Positions 2,832 to 64,000 of a DNA stretch of 64,000 nucleotides are shown piece after piece; position 1 is the first letter of the stretch; every line of letters begins with the position of its first letter. Made by a program: the position numbers and the translations under genes. The notes under the pieces are model-generated. The model was not told where the DNA came from and made no database searches. It saw only the letters and a program-made list of their open reading frames with translations. This DNA comes from Phoronis australis (lineage: Eukaryota; Animalia; Phoronida), in the NCBI GenBank assembly GCA_002633005.1, contig NMRA01000500.1:200943-264942 (forward strand), read 5' to 3'.

Positions 2832-5800
2832 ACTCGGGCTCTAGATAACGGGGGATAACGACTTCGCCATGTAATAATTTATATTTATCTTCTATGTATC
2901 AGGTATCAATGGCTCGTCCCAGTATTCCTAAGGAGGTAATTCGACATTTGTTGTTAATTGCACTACAAAAGTACCTTTTAGGAACTGTATTTACAAACCA
3001 ATGGTATATCCATGGGATCACCTCTCGTACCGACTTTTGCTGATTTTCACATGTGCAACATTGAAACTAAGGTTATTGATAGTCTTCAAGGAAAGCCGAA
3101 CATGTACTGCAGGTATGTTGATGATATGTTTATGATTGTCAACCATGATAAGCTTATGAAGATCAAACTCTCTTTAGAGCAAAATTCTGTATTAAAATTC
3201 ACGCATGAATTACAGTTAAAACAAGCTACCGTTCTTAGACGTACTTATTGATTATGATGAATTTGGCATTGAAACCTCAGTATACAGGAAACTACATATG
3301 ATGGGGTTTGTTTACATGAAACTAGCCAATGTCCTCTGATATATGAATTCTCTGTTTTGACAAGCTTTTTGAAAAGAGCATATTCCGTTTGCTCAGACTG
3401 GAAAACCTTCAACTCTGAGTGTAATCGCATTATGCAAATTATGATAAATAACGGTTACAGTAATAAGTTTGTTGATGAGAATATGAAGCTTTTCATAAGC
3501 CGCTTGCATAGGCCTGTGTGTTTAAAACAACCAAGTGGTTGTACTAAGAAACTATTCTACTGCAACCAATTCCATTCACGTTATATTGAAGATGAACGAG
3601 TTTTAAAACGGATCGTCTATAATAATGTTAAGACCGTTAAGCCAGAAGATAGTTTTAAGTTATTTATATATTACCAAAACCATAAAACTAAAGATCTTGT
3701 TGTTAAAAACAATATGTGCTCAAAGTCGGTCGAGTGTTAGCCAAAACTGACTTGATTTATCAGTTCAATTGCCCCCACAACAAATGTATTCGTTCAAACA
3801 CTGATTGCTCAAGGTATGTTGGTTATACAACTTGCACTTCATCTCGCCGGTTATCTATGCATTTACAAAATGGATCAATTAAAGATCACTTCCAAACACT
3901 CCACAAACAGAAAATTTCTCGTTCAGATATTGTTGACAGTACCATTGTCCGGCATTTCGAACGTGACTCCTTTCGTTTGAAACCATCATCCACAGATTCT
4001 GCATCAGGCATTGTGACATTGGCTTCAAGAATGTCAGTGAGCCATGATTTTAGGCGAACACGTCGTGACTGAGGCTGTTGGCAATGGTCCGATTTTCGTG
4101 ACAGAAAATGCCATGTTGATCGCATTGGCTATCCTGGCATGGTATAAATAGAATGTCTTCTGTTCTACTGAGTGATAATTCCTTGCATTCCAACCCAATG
4201 AGATAAATATAGAAGATATAGCTCATTGTTCCAACCTAGTTAGTGTTCCAACCTAGTTAGACCATGGACCAGGCGAAAAAGCTTTTCTGCTCTCACGACG
4301 ATGAAGAGGTGTACATGTGAATATCTTCTATTCTGACGAGTATGCATAAATATTAACTCTCACGTGATTGTATTTATTCAAGTTATTCCACATTACAAGT
4401 GATCAAGGCTCACACGCTATAGTCTAGCAGGTTGAACTCAATAATTATAGCTTTGGTAAAGCGAAAAACTACAAAAATGTCAAATGTTTCACATCATTTC
4501 AAAATAAATAGGTAAAAACTGCATTTTAAGGACTTGTGTGCTATTCGATGTCTTTCATGCCATCACTAGGAAGCACACCCTCTAGTATAATACAACACTT
4601 ATTTTATGGAATATTATTCCAAGCAAGAAAGGTACCGCAGGCCATGCAAGATGGTGCAGATTAAGGCAGGAGAGAAGTAGTAATGAGAATGCCCGTGAAA
4701 ACCATGTAAAATCCAATATATGACCGAAGTCAAGCACATCCCTGCATCAGCTACGATTTTGATACACGACTTCTCTGAAAAAAAAGATTATTCACAATTG
4801 TGGCTTACAGAATATGATACAAGAAGAATTGTGATAAACAGTTTTAAAAACAATAGTAGGCTAAGTGATTAACCACAACATAAGGTGCCCTTCTAAGCTT
4901 AACCATGGGGAACATCATTGGCAGTTGGCAGAGCAGTTTTTCAGTGGATGGAATGGTACTTGAAACCAGGGTCCAGTTTTATCAAAGGTTGCAAGTCTGG
5001 TTAAGACCGATGGCGAAAATTCAGAAAAAAAACGTTTCAAGAACTTTAAGACTGTCTTTGGTCGTCGGTTTTAGACTTAGACAGAAATGACCCAAGTGGG
5101 TTACGCTTTCGCCTGGACACAACACTGAACGAGGCGATGACTGAAATACTGTTTCAAGAATAATCTTGGCTTCGAAACTCTAAATGGTTATTTTTTACAC
5201 CATTTTTATGTGGAAATACCCTGGAAGGACTGGAAAATGTCATTTCAGATGTGCAGGTAATACAATGTCTCTACACCCGGTGGTTTGCCTGTTCTCGAAC
5301 CGAAATAAAACGTGAATGGGCATTAGGTTGCAAAAGATTGCTAAAAATATCAACGAAATTTGTTCCTCGACGGTTTACAGTGATGATCGTTCAGTCTTTT
5401 AAAAGCCTACACCGACCAAATTTGAGGTCTACTTTCAGTCTAATCTTAGACCGATTTCGGTCGAAATTAAAGTGCCCAAAACCACCTTGTCACCTCGCCT
5501 TTGGCAGGCGACAATATGTGTCGAGTGCAACAACATATGACACAATACACCTCTTGGTTTATAACTGACATGGGTTAAATTCCCCCACCTGGAAACAATC
5601 TGATTGAGACTCCAGCATTCAGTGGCAGATCAAGACCAGCATGTCAAACCACGGTACAAACGAAATGGAGCGAAATCGCACGGAACGCTTCTCCTGTGCG
5701 GTGTATATTGAAGATGCAAAGTCCTTACCTCGACAATGCCACCGTCTCAAGTGGTGGATTTAAAATTCTCTGAGATTCCATTTGGCAGTACGGGGGTGCG

Positions 5801-49757: not shown

Positions 49758-52700
49758 ATGGAGACAATGCCTTCTACAGGACCAGTGGAATGTCCTCCAC
49801 CAGGATTTGGTGTGGTAATTACTTATTGGTGCTTGATAACATGAAAGTAAATTTCATGTGTAGACAGTAGTGGTCCTCTACGGTATATTATTGGTGCCAG
49901 TTGTTTAAATTTGAGTATCCAGCATAAATTAGTTCTACAGTCTCTAATTTCTATTCAATTTAGGGCTATTTTTAGTGGCACACCACACCATATCATGGGT
50001 CAACAACTGATCCAGCACCAATTAGCAAAAATGATTAAAAAGGCTACTGATTTGTTTCTATTATCTTCCTGTGAAAGTACATTACAAAAACTCCTGTTTG
50101 ATTTCAACTCCAGGCCACAGCGCTCTCTAAATTAGGTATGGTACCAATATCAATCTAGCTGTTAAGCATTCCCGCAGTCTTTTGTCCAGCGTCATAACTC
50201 GCAAGCCAACTATCTAACATGGTTAAAGGAGTTTCTAAAACCATTCATCAACAAGAACCAGAGAACCAAAACCTAACGCATATCTATGTTTGTTCATTGT
50301 TGTCATATTTTTGATAAAAATCACTGTAAGCTAATGTTTTATAAGGAATTCAAGTTTAGAAGCCAAACCATTCCCGATATATCAATTTAGCCAGTATTTT
50401 ATTGTTATGAAGCCATTGCTAATGCAGTAATTGCTCTGCTATGCACAATAAGACATTAGATCAAGTTTGCTGTTTACTACATTTCTTGTACAAATTAATG
50501 TAGTTACGTGAAACAAGCTGAGGTTCTAATGAAAAGTACAAGTGTTTTAATAAAAAACACAAAATTGTACATAACACAGTTACAAATTGTTTTCATGTCA
50601 GAGAATTAATACCATGTTGGCCATGTCTTTCTACAGCTAGATTCATTACTTCACACTTAAGTTAATGTAGGTTTAAGTTGGTGATTGTTGGCATGTTGGT
50701 GACACTTTGAGTTCATATAAACATTGTGTTAGAATTTATGTATTGCTGTTTGTAAGATCAAATATGCCGCTATTCGCTTGAGCAACCACAAATTAAGGGT
50801 CCAAATCTGGGTTTTTGTTTGTGATTCCCTGCGCTTTTTACTCTGTTGTGTTTCAGACCCAGTTCACAATTGAGGAAGAGAAAGCCATACAGGCAGCCCT
50901 GCAGCAAAAACTTGGACCAGAGTTCATCAGTCAACGCCAGGGGGCAGGAGGACAAAAGGTATGTTCAAGCATTTGAAGTCAACCATCCCTTCTTGCTATA
51001 AGTTATGGCGTATTCTTAGAGACTGTATTTTTACAAAAAGGAGATATGTTCCAGCAGGGATGTAGAGCGTAAGACCAAATTTCTGACTTCATGAAAAAGA
51101 TCCCTGTACTCAATATAAACTGCACTTCATTTTTTTTGCAGTTAGCCTACATTGAAGGATGGAGAATTATTAATCTTGCAAATGAGACCTTTGGTTTCAA
51201 TGGCTGGTCTCACTCGGTCACTCATCAGACTGTAGGTAAGAAAAGTCTTTTTAAGCCACAGACTATCGCAGTATTTCATAAGCTGTGTAAAAACAGGAAG
51301 GGTTTTCAGAGCTGCCTTGGTCTTTGTTATGTTTTCTTTCGGGGAGGGGACACAATGTTGTTTATTTCATTTTTTAGCCCACTTAAGAGGTTATGAGAAA
51401 CCCCTCATCTTACCTCACTTCCGTAAGTGATGTAACTGTCAATATTGTGTTGACCTCTGAGAGGTCAGGTCTTCAGCAACTGGAGCCACTTAATAAACTT
51501 ATGGGTCATTTCATTGACCTTCCACCTCACTTCATAAACCCAGGAGAATATGGTATGCTAACAATACTAATACTGCCTTTTTATAGGATTGTTATTAACA
51601 AAATAATTGTCACATTCCATGAAAAAATTAAATTCTTTTATTTTGGATCCTTACATATTGTGCCCATTCATTCAGTGCATTGTGTGTTCAATGGTGTCAA
51701 CATGTGTCAAGAAGATCGCAATTTTCACTTCAAAATCATGTCATGTTTCGAATGAGGTATGCGTCTTTTTTATGCAAGTAATTTTTGCAAAGATGATAAC
51801 ATTTCAAATGCTGTGTTTGTCTTTGCAGATTTCATTGATCATTACAACGGGCGATTTTATGTGGGTGTGAGCGCATTTGTTAAGGTTCAGCTAAAGGTTT
51901 GTGACAACTCAATAATTAATATGTTATGTTTTGAAGACCACGCCTATTGTATTTGTAAACCAGAATTAAAAGCCATTTCAATGTCATCAAAACCCTCTTT
52001 AGTAACATTATGACTTCTTGCAATAATATAATAAGCTTTTAACGGAAAGGTATGAAAATCAAAAGTGGCAAATTATTAGTTTTAGCAATAAATTGAAGAA
52101 TTTTTTCAGCATTTGTGAATGTCAAGTATTTCATATTCTGCTCAGAAATAAATTGTATTTTTCCACGTGACATTACTTCTTGTGTTCATTTCTGCACCAA
52201 AGCTGCATTTTGTTGCATTTCACATTCAAACAATCAACTATTGAATAATAATTTCTTTTCTTCCAGCTAGTTGGTTTACCACCTGCGGTTGATAACTTCA
52301 ATCTTTGGTTGAAAACTTAATTACTAATGTTTCCAGGACGGTGCTTTCCATGAAGATATTGGTTATGGAGTGTCCGAAGGAATGAGATCTAAGGCACTGT
52401 CTGTGGAGAAGGCTCGCAAGGAAGCTGTCACTGACGGTTTGAAGAGAGCCTTGAAGTAGGTGTTACATAACAATTAAAAGCGCCCGCTTTGTTGTAAAAA
52501 AGGAATTTATGTAGACCTCGCACTGCTATGAAACTGAAACAGTCTTCGACTTGTTCCATACTGAGATTAAGAGTGATTTCTGGACTTGGGAAGAGCTGAC
52601 AGTTATTTTGTGCACCGAGCTTGTTCTCAAGCAACAACAGAATATCTCCCTGGCACAGCAGTCATGTTTAATTTTTGGGACCTTTTAAAGTGCAGTGATT

Positions 52701-55700
52701 AATGGATAAAAGTACTGTCACAATGCAAAAGCAAATTTCAGCAGATTTAGGACAAGCTAACAGTCTGTAGTATCGCTTGTGATCAGCAGCTGATTATTGT
52801 TTGATAACGTTGTTGTCCTGTATTACACTGCAATAGCACTCTCCTTTGTCCCGAACACCTCATTTTGGAAATCAAGCACATTTTTGTACCTCTTATTGAT
52901 GCTGGGAAGGTGAAGAATTTCACATCAGACATTCACGGGTATTTGTCCAGTTTATCAAACTTTTTCACGTCGGAGTTGCAGCCCACAGCACAGCAGTAAT
53001 ACTTTGTTGGCATTGGAAGCATGAATAGAGTAATGCAACTGAGAAAAACTTGTAAAGAATCAGACAACAACAAAAAACATATGAAACTCCAATTGCACGA
53101 AAACGAGGCAGCAAATGTGCCTGACAAATGTTTACGGCATTGTGGGTAAATACATCGAGATTTGAGTGTCGCTGTGTAATCCAGGAATGCCCTATTGCTC
53201 GAATGGATCAGCTATTGTGCACATTGAAACGCATGGCTAAAAAGGTTAACAAATTCAGTTTGCATTTAATTACAAGTTTCCTATGATAATAAAATGGTGT
53301 CATCAAGTGTTACTCTATAACAATAGATGCATTATAATGTCTCATAATCGCCTTGGCAACATTTTCAGGTCATTTGGTAATGCACTCGGTAATTGTCTTG
53401 GGGACAGGGATTATTTGAAGTTGATCAACAAAGCACCTAAAGCCGTAAGTTGTGCATTATAACTCAATAATCCAGTGTTAATTGAGAAGATGATTGAAGT
53501 GCCTGAGTTCTTAGTGTCTGCTTTCATCATTATTGTTACTCCAGCTTCTTTCATTTGCCATGATATGAAATGTGCTCTAAATACTTTGCATGTAAATGTT
53601 TAGATTTATGTGTGTGCAGCTGAATGTCAATCAGTTTGTTTACAATGTTTAAGGCATTCGATCACACGTTATGTATAATTCAAAAAGCGGTCTGAGCAAT
53701 TTTTTCATGAAGGTAGATGCAATAATTTCAAAACGTTAAATTTGAAGTGTGAGTTTCCATAATTTTTGCAACATTTTAAAGTTGACATTTTTGGATACGT
53801 GGTTCTTTGTCACCAACTGAGAGCTGAGAAGTGCTTCATGATCTCCGGTCTATAAACAATGTTTTTAATTTGCTTAATTTGGCATGGATGTTGCTAAACT
53901 CGTATTTATTCAGGAGACAGTTGTCACAGAGCAACTAACACAGAATAGCTGTTCAGGTGAAAGTGTGTGTGTGTCAACACGACTCACCCCTAGCAAGTTG
54001 ACACTGTGATGGCCATTTTTGACATTGGTTTATGAGGTAGAACAAGTCGTTTTAGTTTCAACTACAAGTCCACTCACAAACTGGGGCAGGACAGAAGCGA
54101 TTATCTCAGTTACCCTTTCGTAATAGCGTATGTACGAGTATTTCGTTAGCATTCCCCATAGCTTGGGTGTTTGCTGTTTTTTATGAAAGCATTCATACAC
54201 AGCCTTTGTGGAAATGACTCATGCTGATCTAGTTTGCGAAAATGCAACAAAAGTGGAGCACGTCACTGTTTGACATCACCATGACTACTGCTCCCCATGT
54301 AAAAACAGCTCAAGATTCGGAAATGACATGCAATTCATTGACCGTTCACATAAATACTTTGACCAGGCATTGAAGTCCCATGCACTGCTAGGTAGGTCAA
54401 GCTGGTGGATCAATCCATTAAATCCATTTCCGTGTTCATTTGTGAATGGTAACTCACTGTATTAAAGAACCAAAACAAACTAAGGATTCCTCCCCGAAAC
54501 ATGGACTAAAACTATTAGTTTTCAAAGATTGGAATTCCAAGGACTTGACTATAGCTGGAAATATATATTTATTCCAGGCCAATTTTGACTCATAGCTAAT
54601 TGGCCAGATTAGTCCTGTATCCAGCCACTGGATTAAGTATTTCTTTGTCTTGAGTTTTGAGATTACCCTTCATATTATTAGTGGTGCTCTTATGTCACAC
54701 AACATTCTTTGTTACTTGTCCAATAGGCATCAAGTCCTGTGGAGATGTCTTCACTCAAACGCAAAGATGCAGACGCAGCAGTTGTAAAAGCGAGGTACAC
54801 TCGAAGGCCTGTTCAACAAACAGAGCAGTTCAATTTGAATAAAGCATCAACAAGTTCAGATAACACCATCTTCGTGCAAGATAACTTGAATCGTGTGATT
54901 ACTCACAGCCACAAAATGGAATCAAATTCGACCTCCACCTCAGTGATTACTGGTGAAGAGACAGAAAAAGTCACATCATGCACTAATGTAGTGAACACCC
55001 GCAGTAAGTCTCTTGGCGAACACCATTCTAATGTGACATTCGTGAAGCCTCTGCCGAGGTCAGATACGAAAGGCAGTGGACGCAGGTCAGTGAACGAGTC
55101 TGACACAAGTATAACGGAAGAGTTTGTGGCTGGTAACATTACGGAAGACGAGGCAGAGAGAATTCAAAGAAAACTGCGACAAAAGCAAAAACAGGAAGAG
55201 TTTCAAATCAAGATGAAGCAGAATAAGATTAAATCGCCTGTGTCTACAAGTAAGTAATTTAGCAAATGATGATGAATTGAAATTTTTGCTTCATTAATTG
55301 TGATTTTGCAGTCCGTCCTTTTATGAGATAGTTTATGGAGTGCTGTAGAGCTTAAAAAATATTTCATGGAGAGCAGTGTTTGTCAGAGGCAGCAAAACAT
55401 TGACTTACAGCGGCTACAAGTTCGCCTTTCATCACAAAAATCAAGTTGTGATTTAGACCACTTATGGTTATTAAGATGGTCTCGATTTGTTCCTTTTAAT
55501 AGTCAAACTGGAGGTGATGCCAGGCCTTCGAAAGAACTGACAGTTTGTTAGAGCTTGAGACCTGTCTCCATAAGTTGGTTTGTCACAACATGTCATTTTA
55601 TTTGACCAGCATGATCTCAAGAAATAAACAAACATCTTTGCACACCTGGAAATTACCTCCACTTTTGCAAATCCAGAAATCACTACTCATCCTAGTAGGG

Positions 55701-56881
55701 AACAAGTTGAGACCAATTTTATAGCAGCAAGTGGTTTACATACAAAATAGCGTCTTGAACAAAATGCAGGTTTAAAGCTACTTAAATTGAAGGTAGAAAG
55801 TTTTACCCAGCTGCTTACGTTTGAGAACCACCTGCACAACATTTGAAGTAAAGAATTTCAGTAGGTGTTTTTAAACTTTTTGGCGCGTTTAAGTGACTTT
55901 TTATTTATCTTGTGGATCATAACTATACATATTAACATTTAAAAGATGATTCTGGGTGACTACTTCAAAAGGCAGCAAATTAACCTAACTTCCTGAGCTC
56001 TGAATAGCTGACGTTCCATCTGACTTGAATATTTCACAATCCCATATTTCAGGTGTAGCTAACCCCAAACCCTGTTCAACACCCACTTCTGTTGATGTAA
56101 GAAAGCAAATGAATCAAACCACCAGCTCTCGCGAGTCACTACTGGCTGAGGATAATTACATAGGTCGGTGTCTCGTGTTAATGATTCATTTGCAGTTGTG
56201 AGCTAAACTGGTTAACTTGTCTCATTTAATTTTGCCTTTTTCAGGTTGAAAATTCCTGGTCGTTTTGTAAAACATTTGCACAGATAAGTTGAGTTCCACG
56301 GGGATGGTTCTGTAGGATGGCAATCTGTAAAACACCATCTTTTGTATTAAATGGTTGATTTTGTTCATTTCAATTTTTTACCCATTTCACCATGATGGCA
56401 CCCACGTAGATCAGTTTTAGATTCTGTAGACTGTTCATTTTATTATTATTTTTAAGTCGTTTGAGAATATGATACTCTTTAGTACTCCATGTTCCTTCAG
56501 TGGTAAAGATTTAAGAGAAGAGAATTTTTCTGATGAAAAACATTTACATTATTTATTATCTTTTGGTGAACACATTTTCTCTCATGTTTTACTATCATGG
56601 ACAAAATTTGCATTTTTAAGAGAATGTTTACTGCATTAGAAAGACATAAGATGGTTTCGAAAATTGACTTGTCTACAACAATCAGAAAGTATATTGCATT
56701 TTGACTGTATTGCATCCTTCCAGATGATCCAGAGTTGTGGAATCAGACTTTGGAACTGGATGATCTGGAGAAATTGCAGGAATCGGAAAACGAACAGAAT
56801 CTGCGATCATCTCCACGTTTTTCTCAGAAACACCAGACTCACCACGGCAAGAAGAGAAAACTTGAATCTCCTGCTAAATGA
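49758..56881 (+). CDS. RAD52: DNA repair protein RAD52, ~435 aa
   Basis: Exons 49758-49814, 50857-50958, 51142-51235, 51829-51896, 52337-52455, 53369-53444, 54727-55249, 56053-56163, 56724-56881. Motifs [92 protein letters not shown] and a C-terminal KKRK NLS; AATAAA at ~56930. Confidence 0.96.
52840..53170 (-). mobile_element. THAP-domain DNA transposon remnant in a RAD52 intron
   Basis: Minus strand [36 protein letters not shown]; homologous to 39960-40350. Confidence 0.65.
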
Positions 56882-58687
56882 CCTTTGACCTTCCAACCAG
56901 CTGTGGATTAGTTTGTTAAGTAATAAGAGAATAAATAATAAAATAAATGCAACACTTAGCCACTAACTGATGCTATTAATGTGAAATTTTTATAAAGTAA
57001 TAATGAATGATCACTTGGGAGCACTTTGTGCAACAATAGTGTTAGTTTCAATTGCTAAGAAGGTTTGATTGGCGGCCTTAATGTGCCATCATGTTAATTT
57101 TGTGTAAGAGAATACACGTGTGTGTGTTTCTTGATGAATTTTGTTAATGTCTATATTTATTCTCATTTTACCACATTGTTAACATCTAATTGAAAACTTC
57201 GTAATGAATTATTAAGGAATTTCAGCTTGTCCAGTCGCTTTAGTTGAGATTTCTTTTTGCTTGCGTCATTTATTTTGTGCTCTATGTCTTTCATCTCAGA
57301 GGACTTCAATGTGCAAAGTCACTTTATGGTTACTCTTTGCTTGCTTTGTGCTATTTTATGTGTAGGAAATTGAGAATCTCTTTAGGGCTTGATAATGAGG
57401 ATTTAAATGGTACCGTAGTTGAAAACATTTGAGGTTAAGGCTGCTATTATCCATGTTTCAGCCAAGAAGTAAACTTTTTATTTCGACAACTTATTACAAT
57501 AGAATTAGTTTCTGTTTGTTCCTTATTCCGATGGGAAGAGATTACTAGGTTTGGAAAGAACTAACAGTTTGTTATTATTTGAATCCATGCTCGACACAAA
57601 AATATATGCTGTGGCAAGAAGCCAACTTGTGGGGCTTAATCTCCAGCAAAAACTAAGTGTCAGTTTGCCGAAAAGCTGAAATCATCTCCCATTGGACTAA
57701 CGAACAATTTGAGGCCACATTGATGAAAGCCAATCGGCTGTGGTTTCTTTAATTGGAGACTAATTTCATGGTAACTGGTCCAGATCAGAAGTTGTTTCTT
57801 GGGATGGAAGTATGTTTATTGCAACTTTTAAGTTGCACACATAAATGTGTCTGAGCTTTCTTGGATCAACTGATTCTGAGGATGTAGGTGTGGTGTTTCA
57901 CTGGTTTTCGTGTCATTTAAGCATTTCTTGAGCGGCTTTGCCCACATCAGAGACTTTCATAAAGCATACCAAATGATAAGGAGAGAAACATAGCTGTTTT
58001 TACTGCTGTCTAGAAGACATGGAAACTATTTCCCTTGATGTAGCAACTGTATCATTGTATTAAGCCAATCCCCTCCAGATTAAGTTTCTCGTATTGGAAA
58101 TCCCCCCCTCTGTAACCAATGGGGATGCACTCACTGCCCTATTGGCTGCTGAGGTTTGCGCAAGGTACCATCCATGGGTACTTCAGGTCTGCCTCAGCCA
58201 TTACAATTTTATTTCCAAGTGTCCATGAAGATTCTGTGACATGAACAGCTCATAACCCGTGAGTGGAAAATTGGCTGTGACCTAGGAGAGCAAAGCAAAC
58301 TGTCTGCTAATCACAATTTAACTCCAATGAGTGGTGCCTGCAGACAAATACTTCATGTTGATTATGGAGCAATTACAGCTTGGTAAATAAAAACATAAAA
58401 ATGACATTTCTCTTGATTTTGTCATTACAACAAAATGTTATTAAACTTTTATTCCAATTCTTTAAACTTTGATAACATCCATACAACTATATTGCAACAC
58501 AATATCCATATTAACTCTCACAGAATTCTTGTATTCTGTGTATCACATGTCTTTTTTCAAAGCATTCTTTGTCATAGATATGCCTTCATCTCACAACTTG
58601 AGCAATGAAGTAAATAAATATTGGTCCATAGCCTTAAAATCCTCCTGTTGAGTATCACCATCTCTCAGTCTTTTCAAAACAATCCTT

Positions 58688-61162
58688 TTATATATTATCC
58701 ACAATGGTCTTGTCCGAGACAGTGTTGAGTGAATGATTCCTGTACATTCCACATTTTCCTAAATGCTGAAACAAAAAAGTGAAACGTGAATTTCTCGAAG
58801 CAGATCCGGGGAGTGCTACCCTTGGCTACACTAACCTTTGGTTAGTCTATGTGAGGTCTACCGAAGCATTATTTCACCTCAATCATTAATGAAGTCATTA
58901 CATTGTAACAAAACATTGATTTGTCCATTGTAATGCTCAGATGAGATTTTATGAAATAGTACCAAGAATCTACCAATAGGAGCAGATGCATAAGATTTTA
59001 GGTTTGTGAAATTTTTAGACATTTAAAGCTAATTTGGTAAGTACTCCAAAGATGGCAATGATGAAGTCAATGTATTGACCAAATACAAGGAAAATAGTCA
59101 GAGTAGCAATCAATAAAATTGTGTAAAATTTGGATTTATACTTGATTATTGTTTTAAAAGAACTCGGAATAATGCTACAGGGGAATTCGGTCTTTGGCAA
59201 CAATACAGAAGTTAAAAATTCGAAAGTATTGCTGTGCACATTTAACAAAGGTGTATACGAACAGTTATTCAAAATGTCCTTGCAGTAAATGACAATGGCT
59301 TACCTCGCTGAAGCCCTGAGATCTGCAGTAAAATTGGGACGGCATGTCAAATACCGATGGAGGTAAACCACCGTATGTATTCGATGTTGTCTGAAACATA
59401 GGGTTTTGCTTCTTCTGTCCGTATCCTTTGAACCACTCTGAAAGGAAGATCAATTCATTGTATTGACATGTAGACTAATATTACTGAGCTAGATTGTTCA
59501 ATAAAATGTGTCGATATGAGAGAATGCTTACACTACAAGCAAGCATATTATTGAAACATACGCATTAGACAAGACCTCCAGCTTGGAAATTTAGTGAAAT
59601 TATTAATAGTGAATTTTAGGCTTGTCACAATAAAGAAAAGCCAGTTCAATATTCCTTGAGGCCATGCTCCTATTAAATGGCCCAGCAGGCCAAGCCACTA
59701 ATATCTTAGCCTGATCTCAAGTGCTAACCAATTCTTTGTTCTTCATAAGCCCGAAAAATCCCTTCCAGTTTTGGTAATGAACAGGTTGAGACCAGTTTTG
59801 TGAAGGTAACAGCTTGAAACAAATAAAAAGCCTATCAAAGCTGGGCTTATAGCACCTATATACAGCCAGTTGCATATAAAAGGACTACTAAAAATGACAC
59901 AGCACTAAACGTATTCAAATAGATGCCAAGGTCAAGTAAAGAGAAGCATTTTAAGATGGAGTACAAATGCAGATGTGTAGTTTTTATCAATACTCTGTAC
60001 CAAGAACCATTAGCAAATATAGACTAGAACAAATGTAACTTCTATAACTTTTCAGATATTTATAGTTGCAATCAAGAATACACACCGTCTGTGATTGGTT
60101 CAGGTTCAGGTGCTTTCATTGAGCGTGAACAAGAGAAAATAGGATTACCAGGTAAATAACAACCACCTGAAAACAAAAGCAATCTATTAACACACCAGTC
60201 CATGTAGAAATTGCAGCTGTGATGAGCAACTTTAACAAAACAGTTTTGTAAAGTCAATGCTTGCTGTTTTCAACATCACATTAGGTATGTTTTGTTAGAG
60301 AATACATTAAAACAATACAAACCAACCTTGGTATGGTAACATCAAGCTGCATGTTCTACAGGACTGTGAAAACAAACAAAATGTTACCATACCAGGATTG
60401 TTAAATCTTTCAGGGATATTGAATGTTCTCATATATTCCTCAGTTTTCGAACCTTTGGGGACACCACCAGGTCCAACTTCTGTTTGTTGAGTAGTCTCAG
60501 CATTTCCTTGAGCAGCACTGGCCTCCTGTAATATGAAAGTTTATTTTTGTATTACGAAACAGAACATTTGGAACGAAAAAACCAAGCTAGTACATACATA
60601 GTCAGTAAGATTGGTTGTGTACCACAAGAGAAAGAGTATCGGAACTTCACATGACAAATTAAAAATCAAAAACTTCTGGAATCCTCCAGTAGTTGTGGAG
60701 ACGCTCAGCTATTTATATATTGCGGAATGGCAATTTGAGAATGTTTTTAAACAAACACTTTTGCTCTTGTAGCCCCTGGTTTTGAGAAAAATTTTTATCT
60801 AAACGCCTGGTTCTCAAAATCACGGGTCACCAACACATGATGAGAGACCATTTTCCTGAAGTGAGTTCCAGATTTTTTTTTTGGAGTTGTTTCACGCCAT
60901 ATAATGAATGATTAAGTCGGAGCCCGGGGGTCCATGTCTCCATGCATACTTATAGTAGTCAAGCCCGACCCTGGGGCAGAGAAAAGCAGTCAAATTTCCA
61001 AATACTTCAAATCCTAAGAATAGTTAGGGTGAATTAGCCGATCGGATTAGGCAGCGCAAGGGCGATGTTCCTCCAACACAACTGATTTACTTTATGATTG
61101 AAAAATCTATTATTCCACGCTTGATGTAGATTGCACGATTTCGCTTCGACATAACTTACCAT
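58688..61162 (-). CDS. PIERCE1: PIERCE-family (C9orf116/UPF0691, FAP182-like) microtubule inner protein, PIERCE1-type isoform, 115 aa
   Basis: Exons 61162-61160 (ATG|GTAAGT), 60525-60393 (..KTEEYMRTFNIPERFNNP), 59437-59304 (EWFKGYGQKKQNPMFQTTSNTYGGLPPSVFDMPSQFYCRSQGFSE), 58765-58688 (HLGKCGMYRNHSLNTVSDKTIVDNI*). Matches PIERCE1 LPGRFNNPGWFRGY..YRTSNQAYG..GMFRNNTLN (from memory). AATAAA on the minus strand at ~58450. Confidence 0.92.
60086..60166 (-). CDS. PIERCE2: Alternative 81-nt exon encoding the PIERCE2-type motif (GGCYLPGNPIFSCSRSMKAPEPEPITD)
   Basis: TTTTGTTTTCAG acceptor, G|GTGTGT donor, symmetric phase 1-1. CYLPGNPIFSC resembles PIERCE2/C15orf65 CVNPGNPVFSC (from memory). Confidence 0.75.
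60327..60363 (-). CDS. Alternative 37-nt exon (SCRTCSLMLPYQ, phase 0 to 1), mutually exclusive with 60525-60393
   Basis: TTTTGTTTGTTTTCACAG acceptor only 29 nt after the exon-2 donor; AAG|GTTGGT donor; same phases as exon 2. Confidence 0.6.
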
Positions 61163-61282
61163 TTTGTTAAAGTAAATAGTCCCTTCTGTATCACTCGAAC
61201 GAGCAGCCAAAAATGAATGTACAGCCAGGTGGTTGAGAAAGCAATGAAAGAATGTTATGATGACGTATATTTATTGACGATT

Positions 61283-61296
61283 GTTGCTAAGGACAG
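61283..61296. promoter_or_regulatory. RFX X-box-like motif ~120 bp upstream of the PIERCE ATG
   Basis: GTTGCTAAGGACAG; one strong half-site, at a position typical of ciliary genes. Confidence 0.45.
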
Positions 61297-62934
61297 TAGT
61301 GCCGCCTTTTGGTTGAAACAATCGTTTTAGTGCAGTTTAGAATAGAAACCATTTGTCGTTTAAGAATTTGTTCTATAAAAGTGTAGTAAAAATGGAAATT
61401 AATAGTAAATATTACAGTAAGTTTTTTTAAAAATTTAGGTCAGTGACGGATGTGACCGAGTGAACGCTATGGCACTTTCGATAATTTCCGTTCAAGTTAC
61501 GGAGATATCCGAGATATTCTGAAGTGAATTTGAGGCCATAGAAGGCCGAGGTGTTCACTGAGTCCTGCCGCATATATTCGGCCGTATACCGTTGTGAAAA
61601 TGTTTCCGTGACCCACTGTTAGCGTAGCATTTCTGATAAGTTCAGGTTATGTTAATTTTGCGAGTGTTTTGAACACATTTTTATTGATACTTCAGAGGAG
61701 ATTAATCAAAGCTATAATGTTGAAGCAGACCCCCGGCGGCACAATCTTGAGTGTTTCGTCAGCTCCGCTCCGTGCAAATGAGGAAATAAATGAAGCGATT
61801 TCGGCCGCGGAGGTTCTACCATGCTCATCTTGTTGCCTACCGCCAGCCGGCAACTGACATGCGAAGCGTATACGTGTGCCATTTTCGAATTCGAAGTTTT
61901 AGACCTGGTCCGCGAAATTCAGTAACAGTCGGCAATAAACTTTGCCATCGGCCCGGTTTTCAGCGGCTGATCATCGAAGTCCTTGTGAATCCTCATCACG
62001 CCTAGGCCATAATGACCGTGACTTAGGCCGTGGCCGGGTGAGCCCGATTAGGGAAGGCCTAATTTGATTTTCATTTTATGACCAGCAAGCGAAACGCAGC
62101 TTTCAACTGAACATATGGTTTTGATTGGCAAATACATGTGCTGTCGTTTTTTATAAAATTTAAGAAAATTTATTTATTCTTGTAATATTTAAAACTAGGG
62201 TGGCCTCCAGTGACAGTACTGGTTGTCAGAGGCCCCCAATGAAATAGGTAAACCACGCCAAAAACCCGGCCTCCTAAATTTTAATTGCGACGGCCGACTC
62301 AGGAGGATCACCAGACTGTGAGACGGACCTAGTTGTCACTAGCTATTTCTGAAATAAAATTCCTTAATGAGTCCAACATTCCTAAAGATTGTAAGTCGTT
62401 AAAAGTCCTTTTTTATAATTTGCCGATGCAATTAATGAAAAACAGAAGAAATGACAATGCGTGTGTCAGTCAAACTTTTCCCGACCCCGCACTAGTCTCT
62501 GAATACTGTTATTTACGAAGTAAATTTTCCAAAGTCGCTAGAGAGCTCAACGTAAAATCTCGAGTACACTTTGAAAAAATTAAAGTAGTCACGAATTCGG
62601 TCACACTTTCTTGCTAGGAAAACTGAGAATTATTAATTGGCTTTCGAGTTCGTCCGTTTAGTGGTTGGTTGCATGTGTACTAGTGACTTTGCGAAGAGTG
62701 ACGATTGAATCAAATTAGGCTGATTTAGTCAACTACACTACTTATAATAATTCTTTATTATATGTTTTGGTGTTTTGTTCGAGCAAACTGTCGTGTTAAG
62801 CCGGTAAGTTGTAAAGGAAGCTTAAGTTTTTAACCGAGTGCACTCGTCTGCCTGTACGGCTCTAGTCCCGACCTGCCTAGTTCATAAATATGTTACAGAA
62901 GTGCCCTGGACATGATTATGTAAGTAAGATATAT

Positions 62935-62948
62935 GCGCCCTCTAGTGG
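62935..62948 (-). promoter_or_regulatory. CTCF core motif
   Basis: Reverse complement CCACTAGAGGGCGC, a near-consensus core. Confidence 0.55.
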
Positions 62949-63173
62949 TCAAGCTGTGTATTACGTATGGAATTTTCCTATGATTTCTGAGTCCTTTGGA
63001 TATGGCCAAATATGGTCAGAACCTAGGAGTTATGGGCCTTGCCCTTCAGATCGTGTCTGATTGGTTGAAATTGTGTACTTAAGCTTTGTCTCTGACAGAC
63101 ACGAGGAGTCCAGTCGCAGAGTTCAACAAGCAAACATTAACACCTTCACTCACACCAAATTGCAACTGTTTGT

Positions 63174-63253
63174 GCAGCTTTCGGGCTCCTCCCGAACTTG
63201 GTTGCCAATAGTTTAGCCCCAGCAATTCTCGGGCTCCTCCCGAGCTTGATTGC
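63174..63253 (+). other. Tandem pair of bulged stem-loops (candidate cis-regulatory RNA element)
   Basis: 63174-63205 GCAGCTTTCGGG-CTCCT-CCCGAA-CTT-GGTTGC and 63222-63253 GCAATTCTCGGG-CTCCT-CCCGAG-CTT-GATTGC; all differences preserve pairing. Confidence 0.7.
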
Positions 63254-63376
63254 ATCTCACCTTTCGGATCTGAATAACCAAATTGCCCCGTTCTTGCACA
63301 CACGACTATTAATCAGCGACTGCCGGCTTGCCCGTGTATCAGAACTGTATAAATCACAACGCTGCGATACTAAATC

Positions 63377-63396
63377 ATGGAACAACTGGATTGCTT
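63377..63396 (+). CDS. Putative first coding exon (MEQLDC..) of an unidentified gene continuing past the window
   Basis: ATCATGG start context and TT|GTAAGT donor; CpG-rich upstream region with several donor-like sites (61645, 62037, 62803). Confidence 0.3.
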
Positions 63397-64000
63397 GTAA
63401 GTGTGAAATATTGTAGTTATATATTCTTACAATAAACCTATGTATTATTCACCAACTTTTCGTTTTCAATATCACCCTCAGTCCGCACCGGGCTCGTAAA
63501 ATCGGGGCGCCTTGGTCGTACTGAGAAACCGCCCCCGTTACACTGGTGCACGTGGCCCGCGGATATGTGCGAGTGATGTTGAAAAGCAGTAAACTAAAAT
63601 TTCTTACCGTCAATGCCTATTAGTGCGTTAATGACATTCTTTTCGTTGCTCATGCCGTTGACGTCTTGTCACGCTCGCTGGGTGATGTTTGGAATTAATT
63701 AACTCACATAGCAAACGTCTGTTGAAGGTTGCGTGTTCAAAGTTCGCAAAACGTAATATTTCAAACTCATAGTAGCGACATTGAACACATTTTTGTCAGT
63801 ACTCCTGAGTTGATTTTCCGTTGAGGTTTCACTAAATACCCTTGTCGATTATCAATTCACAACTTTGTCGTGTGTTGCTGTTAATTTCCATGGATAACCT
63901 TGCTTTCGCGAAACTTGCAATATTCAGGTGGCGATAGCTTGAATGTGGGAAGTAACGCCCACTTGTTGCCCAATTAATATTTTCTAGAAGTAGATTCATG

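Follow-up and report, generated by a model that had tools for sequence, protein, structure and literature searches.

Two messages from one PIERCE gene

RNA reads support the conclusion that one gene of Phoronis australis yields both PIERCE1-type and PIERCE2-type messages. The gene lies on the minus strand of the window, i.e. the whole stretch of 64,000 nucleotides that was analysed. Its two messages are mutually exclusive and place different N-terminal segments before the same core. Judged from the predicted proteins, this single PIERCE-family gene probably fills both wall-piercing sites that are known from vertebrates.

Four RNA sources were used, a contig set (X1) and three raw runs with the same species label from a single study (X2, X3 and X4), each of these runs sampled at 18-19%. 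Mapping to positions 58300-61500 yielded 1105, 722 and 192 reads from X2, X3 and X4, respectively, most of them at least 99% alike. Five joins were listed in the gene, and the identical five were obtained when the mapping was repeated at 95% identity. Joins 61160>60525 (208, 110 and 15 reads in X2, X3 and X4) and 59304>58765 (253, 161 and 58 reads) belong to both messages. Join 60393>59437 (227 reads in sum, plus one X1 contig) is specific for isoform A; joins 60453>60166 (136 reads in sum, the cut being placed by a +2 shift from the reported joint 60164/60451) and 60086>59437 are specific for isoform B (Table 1). The X1 contig set contained route A only. On the exon 1 side many molecules end at 61235 and a few at 61254, and the 3' UTR extends to about 58410-58510.

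Isoform A (115 aa) passes from the full exon 2, which ends at the long donor 60393, directly to the shared exons. Isoform B (122 aa) leaves exon 2 at an internal phase-1 donor, 60453, which closes the common part of the exon and serves this isoform only; it then includes the cassette before it reaches the shared exons. The two proteins have 25 N-terminal and 70 C-terminal residues in common, and differ in a segment of 20 residues in A and 27 in B. Isoform B accounts for a fraction of 0.35-0.64 of the joins across the three runs, both forms being present at comparable levels in all of them.

A first-pass annotation, made from the letters of the window, had proposed six exons and two routes through them. 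All six have AG/GT ends and compatible phases, and on paper give 115 aa for route A and 110 aa for route B. Joins 61160>60525, 60393>59437 and 60086>59437, which it had predicted, are all present in X2, X3 and X4. Use of the cassette was therefore foreseen correctly, and the way into it was not: isoform B enters from donor 60453 instead of via an exon 60363-60327, whose joins 61160>60363 and 60327>60166 were listed in none of the runs. The depth of the bin 60226-60332, which contains the last six bases of this proposed exon, is zero in all four runs, and its 12-residue peptide matched none of 299 family proteins, so that it was rejected as an exon in the samples examined here. Isoform B consequently shares the first 25 residues of isoform A and has no MSCRTCSL-type start. 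None of the three outcomes that would have spoken against the proposal was observed: the cassette is spliced in, no hybrid linking it to the full exon was seen, and its motif aligns with PIERCE2.

Table 1. Features of the PIERCE gene in window coordinates; read numbers refer to runs X2/X3/X4
Feature	Position	Strand	Evidence
Exon 1, 5' UTR and ATG (61162-61160)	61160..61235	-	RNA reads, splice and phase check
Exon 2, common part, 73 nt, both isoforms	60453..60525	-	76/48/12 reads to 60166
Exon 2, extension, 60 nt/20 aa, PIERCE1-type motif, isoform A only	60393..60452	-	143/75/9 reads to 59437
Cassette exon, 81 nt, phase 1-1, 27 codons, PIERCE2-type GNP[IV]FSC motif, isoform B only	60086..60166	-	85/65/16 reads to 59437
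Shared exon 3, first part of Pfam PIRC1_2 core	59304..59437	-	PF14892 profile score
Shared last exon, coding part and stop codon	58688..58765	-	RNA reads, splice and phase check
Predicted pre-mRNA hairpin over the long donor; 3' arm contains the unused 'exon' 60363-60327	60323..60400	-	Folding, prediction only
Competing intronic helix, 60360-60345 with 60218-60203	60203..60360	-	Folding, prediction only

Coupling of donor choice and cassette use

In the junction reads, the choice of donor is tied to the cassette: the long donor goes with skipping and the short donor with inclusion. Neither a hybrid join (long donor to cassette) nor a double skip (short donor to exon 3) was listed in the RNA runs, where about 85 reads of each would be expected under independence. 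Even if two hidden reads per run (at most six) are conceded under the listing threshold, independence is rejected (Fisher p 5e-86).

Three possibilities bearing on this pattern were considered and discarded. The reading frame is intact in either missing form and contains no premature stop, which argues against nonsense-mediated decay as the source of the either/or pattern. A constitutive hybrid or double skip would be equally in frame, yet was unlisted at either mapping stringency. Blocking of the hybrid join by a distant branch point does not fit either, because an extra AG is found 18 bases upstream of the cassette acceptor and thus there is no long AG-free zone.

Predicted RNA structure at the long donor

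The predicted hairpin that covers the long donor has a folding energy of -36 kcal/mol (z -6.7; 0 of 200 shuffles were as good). Its arms, 60381-60400 and 60323-60342, head the list of 25 inverted repeats that the gene contains. Among 4646 82-nt windows it ranks fifth by energy, and among the best 25 only a palindrome near 2755 has a lower z. Comparison donors, seven others in the window and that of the cassette-free locus L012, all gave z above -1. The folding energy of the intron is -84.0, as against -64.0 +/- 3.6 for shuffles. According to the prediction, the rival fold listed in Table 1 would cost about 3-6 kcal/mol and leave the long donor exposed.

Consensus letters favour the long donor (6 of 9) over the upstream one (5 of 9). 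By burying the long donor, the hairpin would reduce its strength to a level at which the upstream donor can compete; the second fold, of similar energy, would set the long donor free again. In the computation, opening of the long donor and opening of the cassette acceptor were not coupled (-2.3 to +0.5 kcal/mol, 12 of 100 shuffles being as high), and an equilibrium coupling of hairpin and acceptor was dropped as an explanation. From these models we infer that the hairpin may account for competition by the weaker upstream donor, and not as yet for the strict pairing of donor and cassette.

In Drosophila Dscam1, RNA structure controls mutually exclusive splicing by means of competing intronic pairings beside the alternative splice sites. 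The PIERCE gene resembles it in the predicted presence of such pairings near alternative splice sites. Unlike in Dscam1, the choice here links an alternative donor with a cassette, the predicted structure lies over that donor, and computation gave no coupling.

Identity of the alternative segments

Shared exon 3 alone scores 51.4 bits on the Pfam profile PF14892 (PIRC1_2; cut-off 27), which places the gene in this family. In the PDB it matches PIERCE1, CFAP182 and FAP182 chains, and PIERCE2 chains weakly, the core being closer to PIERCE1. Exon 2 found sea urchin Pierce1 as its sole PDB match, and a homologue search with the 44-aa exon gave a single match. The 26-residue cassette query gave four matches at E<=10 among 177,635 PDB sequences, all of them PIERCE2 and all weak (E 0.23-1.4).

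A profile built solely from nine invertebrate two-motif proteins aligned with four mammalian PIERCE1 proteins and the sea urchin chain in two pieces, with the cassette positions skipped. With four mammalian PIERCE2 proteins it aligned in one piece, which starts at positions 53-58, inside the cassette. Mammalian PIERCE1 and PIERCE2 thus carry complementary halves of the two-motif arrangement. In the same way, isoform X1 of Nematostella reaches into the N terminus of PIERCE2 chains only, and isoform X2 into that of PIERCE1 chains only.

Within 299 family proteins, the exon 2 extension matched 129 of 181 PIERCE1-type, 8 of 12 two-motif and 0 of 30 PIERCE2-type proteins; the corresponding numbers for the cassette are 0 of 181, 3 of 12 and 14 of 30. 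These classes come from motif profiles on the same nine proteins with an 8-bit cut, by which 60 of 283 proteins, many of them fragments, had neither motif; three further matches of the extension and 12 of the cassette fell on unclassed cluster members. The two alternative segments are not detectably homologous to each other (cross scores under 0 bits).

Isoform A has the motif T-S/E-x-Y...P-x-R-F-x-x-P directly before the core, as is typical of PIERCE1-type proteins. Isoform B has GNP[IV]FSC within the range of 15-25 residues before the core and no PIERCE1 motif, as is typical of the PIERCE2 type. Its core lies outside the vertebrate PIERCE2 gene group in three of three trees. As far as sequence goes, isoform B is PIERCE2-like by motif and not an orthologue of the PIERCE2 gene alone. 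The gene is comparable to vertebrate PIERCE1 (C9orf116) and PIERCE2 (C15orf65) in its PIRC1_2 core and in the motifs, that of PIERCE1 in isoform A and that of PIERCE2 in isoform B. Unlike the vertebrate pair of genes, one spliced gene is present here, so that the core is identical in both forms.

Occurrence in other animals

Relatives were collected by an alignment search (292 proteins, 120 listed) and a search of 50% representatives (594 proteins, 150 listed); they are automatic gene models, with exons inferred from the proteins. Of 43 stored proteins with a PIERCE2 segment, ten can be paired with a PIERCE1-only protein whose last 66-75 aa are identical, and 33 are unpaired within this set. 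Four of the pairs are of the either/or kind (Nematostella X1/X2, Lingula X1/X2, Oculina and Xenia X1/X2). Those of Nematostella, Lingula and Oculina split between the same K and G as at donor 60453, and that of Xenia two residues earlier. In the other six pairs (Ptychodera, Rhopilema, Corticium, Littorina, Pomacea and one unnamed transcript pair), the PIERCE1 motif is kept and the cassette is either in or out; a sponge, a jellyfish, snails and a hemichordate are represented. Since six of the ten pairs contain hybrids keeping both motifs, strict either/or splicing is not universal. Two-motif proteins occur also in Oscarella, Trichoplax and Dimorphilus.

A single gene accordingly combines both N-terminal motifs in sponges, Trichoplax, cnidarians, spiralians and a hemichordate. 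The idea of the first-pass annotation that the two N-termini were splice forms of one ancestral gene gains from this distribution and from the two messages described above, its route to isoform B having to be replaced. On present protein comparisons, the presence of both motifs in one gene is old.

The either/or pattern is visible at the protein level in the RefSeq entries of Nematostella (XP_032239910.2), Lingula (XP_013388414.1), Xenia (XP_046840278.1) and Oculina (XP_078384631.1). Such isoforms are labelled X1, X2 etc. under a single PIERCE1-like or PIERCE2-like name, and the correspondence to the two vertebrate genes is absent from the names.

Lineages with a single motif exist as well. 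Eight named echinoderm proteins are PIERCE1-type only and bear no isoform label; no PIERCE2-type chain of the sea urchin model 8SNB was among the PDB matches (8SNB derives from sea urchin sperm, as the accessible text of PMC12551952 has it); and L012 has the PIERCE1 exon and no cassette. Taken together, these cases indicate that the cassette motif can apparently be lost. None of 33 metagenome loci contained both exons. L013 (1110-1640) and L018 (600-1330) have an intron-bounded PIERCE2-type exon with no PIERCE1 motif seen, and the core of L013 groups with Watersipora. Such intron-keeping PIERCE2-only loci may represent another route to a single-motif gene.

In choanoflagellate proteins (Choanoeca, Diaphanoeca) a GNAVF stretch, judged by eye, precedes the PIERCE1 motif. 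In five choanoflagellate and look-alike proteins (P0182, P0204, P0188, P0196 and P0229), one chain appears to combine the two, with the PIERCE2-like stretch ahead of the PIERCE1 motif, the reverse of the animal order. The only choanoflagellate-like proteins that passed the motif cut were two unnamed look-alikes. In another five (P0151, P0162, P0173, P0183 and P0186) both motifs run together, with a shortened cassette motif GN[AC]VF; this group may consist of constitutive hybrids.

Origin of the separate genes

PIERCE2-only proteins with their own diverged cores are present in amphioxus, Xenopus, Ephydatia and Halichondria. At the protein level, each duplicate keeps one form in mammals (PIERCE1 and PIERCE2) and in amphioxus, where P0130 and P0150 represent two genes with one form each. 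In outgroups one gene makes both forms, as seen from the RNA joins here and, at the level of gene models, from pairs belonging to cnidarians, a brachiopod, a sponge, snails and a hemichordate. We therefore favour a history in which early animals would have had both motifs in one gene and duplicates would later have kept one motif each, probably more than once. Before duplicates divided the two jobs, both were likely done by one ancestral gene.

Three trees (60, 64 and 69 rows) were computed from the core only, i.e. from 68 columns, and have many open forks; some of their rows were called 'vertebrate-like' or 'chordate-like' from sequence, not from source labels. For the 69-row tree, 18 rows were added and nine redundant ones dropped. 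The window core and the spliced genes fall outside the PIERCE2-gene group in all three. Six unnamed PIERCE2-only proteins added to the 69-row tree are scattered: four stand beside named PIERCE1-type invertebrate rows, one beside the window core and one in the vertebrate PIERCE2 group.

As regards the date of the duplication, PIERCE2-type genes stand apart in two demosponges, two genes are already present in amphioxus, and vertebrate-type and demosponge PIERCE2 join in the trees with values of 87/77 (60 rows), 98/79 (64 rows) and 85/81 (69 rows). For these reasons the duplicate may be much older than vertebrates. It is even conceivable, albeit in our opinion somewhat improbable, that a gene with the PIERCE2 motif alone branched off in the animal stem and existed beside the spliced gene; demosponges and chordates would then have kept the duplicate and lost the cassette, and other lineages would have done the reverse. 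Such a history differs from the favoured one in timing only. It draws support from the joint position of vertebrate and demosponge PIERCE2 cores in every tree and from the borderline rejection of a constrained grouping of demosponge PIERCE1 with PIERCE2 (p-AU 0.047). The joint group, however, is based on 68 columns, was never starred and has fast-evolving members; amphioxus PIERCE2 lies inside it in one of three trees (that of 60 rows), and the constrained grouping of chordate PIERCE1 with PIERCE2 was not rejected (p-AU 0.26). Moreover, several losses would be required, and adaptation to the same site could produce the same grouping.

Exon shuffling would turn the order of events round, the cassette being copied from a separate PIERCE2 gene into a PIERCE1 gene and the spliced gene being derived. 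The different motif order in choanoflagellate-type proteins does imply some rearrangement close to the origin of animals. Nevertheless, the position of the cassette is constant from homoscleromorph sponges and Trichoplax to hemichordates, so it is older than their split, and choanoflagellate-type proteins seem to have both motifs in one chain. We consider shuffling very improbable.

How a separate PIERCE2 gene could arise is hinted at by L007 (about 1750-2130) and L008 (about 4020-4399), on contigs of 9.5 and 21 kb. Both have an intronless PIERCE2-type frame of about 125 codons, and this gene groups with the PIERCE2-gene clade, which suggests origin as a retrocopy. Intron loss alone is no proof of a retrocopy, since the chordate-type PIERCE1 core of L009-L011 also has no intron between the two shared exons.

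Implications for the axoneme

In their description of the two proteins, Gui et al. (2021, PMC8595878) place PIERCE1 and PIERCE2 24 nm apart; both bind the dynein docking complex via similar C-terminal parts, and different stretches of CFAP53 via diverged N termini. By swapping the N-terminal motif alone, one gene could serve both CFAP53-binding roles. Both isoforms might also be real without dividing the axoneme sites between them: they could belong to different cell types (e.g. sperm versus epithelial cilia), or isoform B could be dispensable, with one protein at both sites. The share of isoform B does vary between runs, single knock-outs in zebrafish are described as having no obvious phenotype (PMC8595878), and PIERCE1-only loci and lineages exist (L012, the echinoderm entries). 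On the other side, both forms are expressed at comparable levels in all three runs, the cassette motif persists from sponges through to hemichordates, and vertebrate PIERCE2, which occupies the second site, keeps the same motif. For these reasons, we regard the absence of site division as unlikely.

If the two isoforms do divide the sites, the two-site PIERCE design is older than the paralogous pair of vertebrates and dates from early animals, and it becomes clear how a species with one gene could still occupy two sites 24 nm apart. The gene would then be a natural experiment, in which the core is identical and 20 versus 27 residues differ, so that the choice of site could be attributed to these motifs. 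A practical prediction follows: cryo-EM models of invertebrate axonemes based on one database sequence may carry the wrong isoform at one of the sites.

A bolder version can be formulated, which we put forward with reserve and believe rather doubtful as a whole. One early-animal gene would have built the 48-to-24-nm bridge, an RNA-fold switch in intron 2 would have picked the CFAP53-binding motif for a common core over more than 500 million years, and the PIERCE2 gene would be a reverse-transcribed copy of isoform B. The last point was suggested by the intronless PIERCE2-type gene of L007 and L008.

Division of splice forms between duplicates is a known route of subfunctionalisation, as put in the accessible parts of Lambert et al. 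(2015, PMC4417111) and Abascal et al. (2015, PMC4494069). The PIERCE pattern fits it and would be an unusually old and structurally interpretable case. As in the examples given there, isoforms of a spliced gene correspond to separate paralogues elsewhere. Those comparisons, so far as their accessible text goes, concern vertebrates, and the set of Abascal et al. homologous mutually exclusive exons; the PIERCE case differs in segments that are not detectably homologous, in a range from cnidarians to bilaterians and in paralogues with known distinct structural sites. In the accessible text of PMC8595878 the two proteins are described as paralogues of mammals having 'diverged N termini'; splicing is not mentioned there, the word 'exon' appearing once, in a genotyping method. 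Our literature search found no published report of PIERCE either/or splicing; most subscription papers were outside its scope, and a passing remark is possible.

Genomic neighbourhood

On the plus strand at 51100-56900, tail to tail with the PIERCE gene, lies a weakly expressed, spliced member of the Rad52/Rad22 family, the part 52337-52456 of which scores 47.4 bits on Pfam PF04098. The long near-perfect palindrome at 2755-2840, close to the assembly gap 1797-2001, gives the strongest fold predicted anywhere in the window (z about -10) and is probably a small mobile element. Upstream of the PIERCE gene, the region 62890-64000 is covered on both strands by reads that show numerous differences and loose ends, and looks like a transcribed repeat family.
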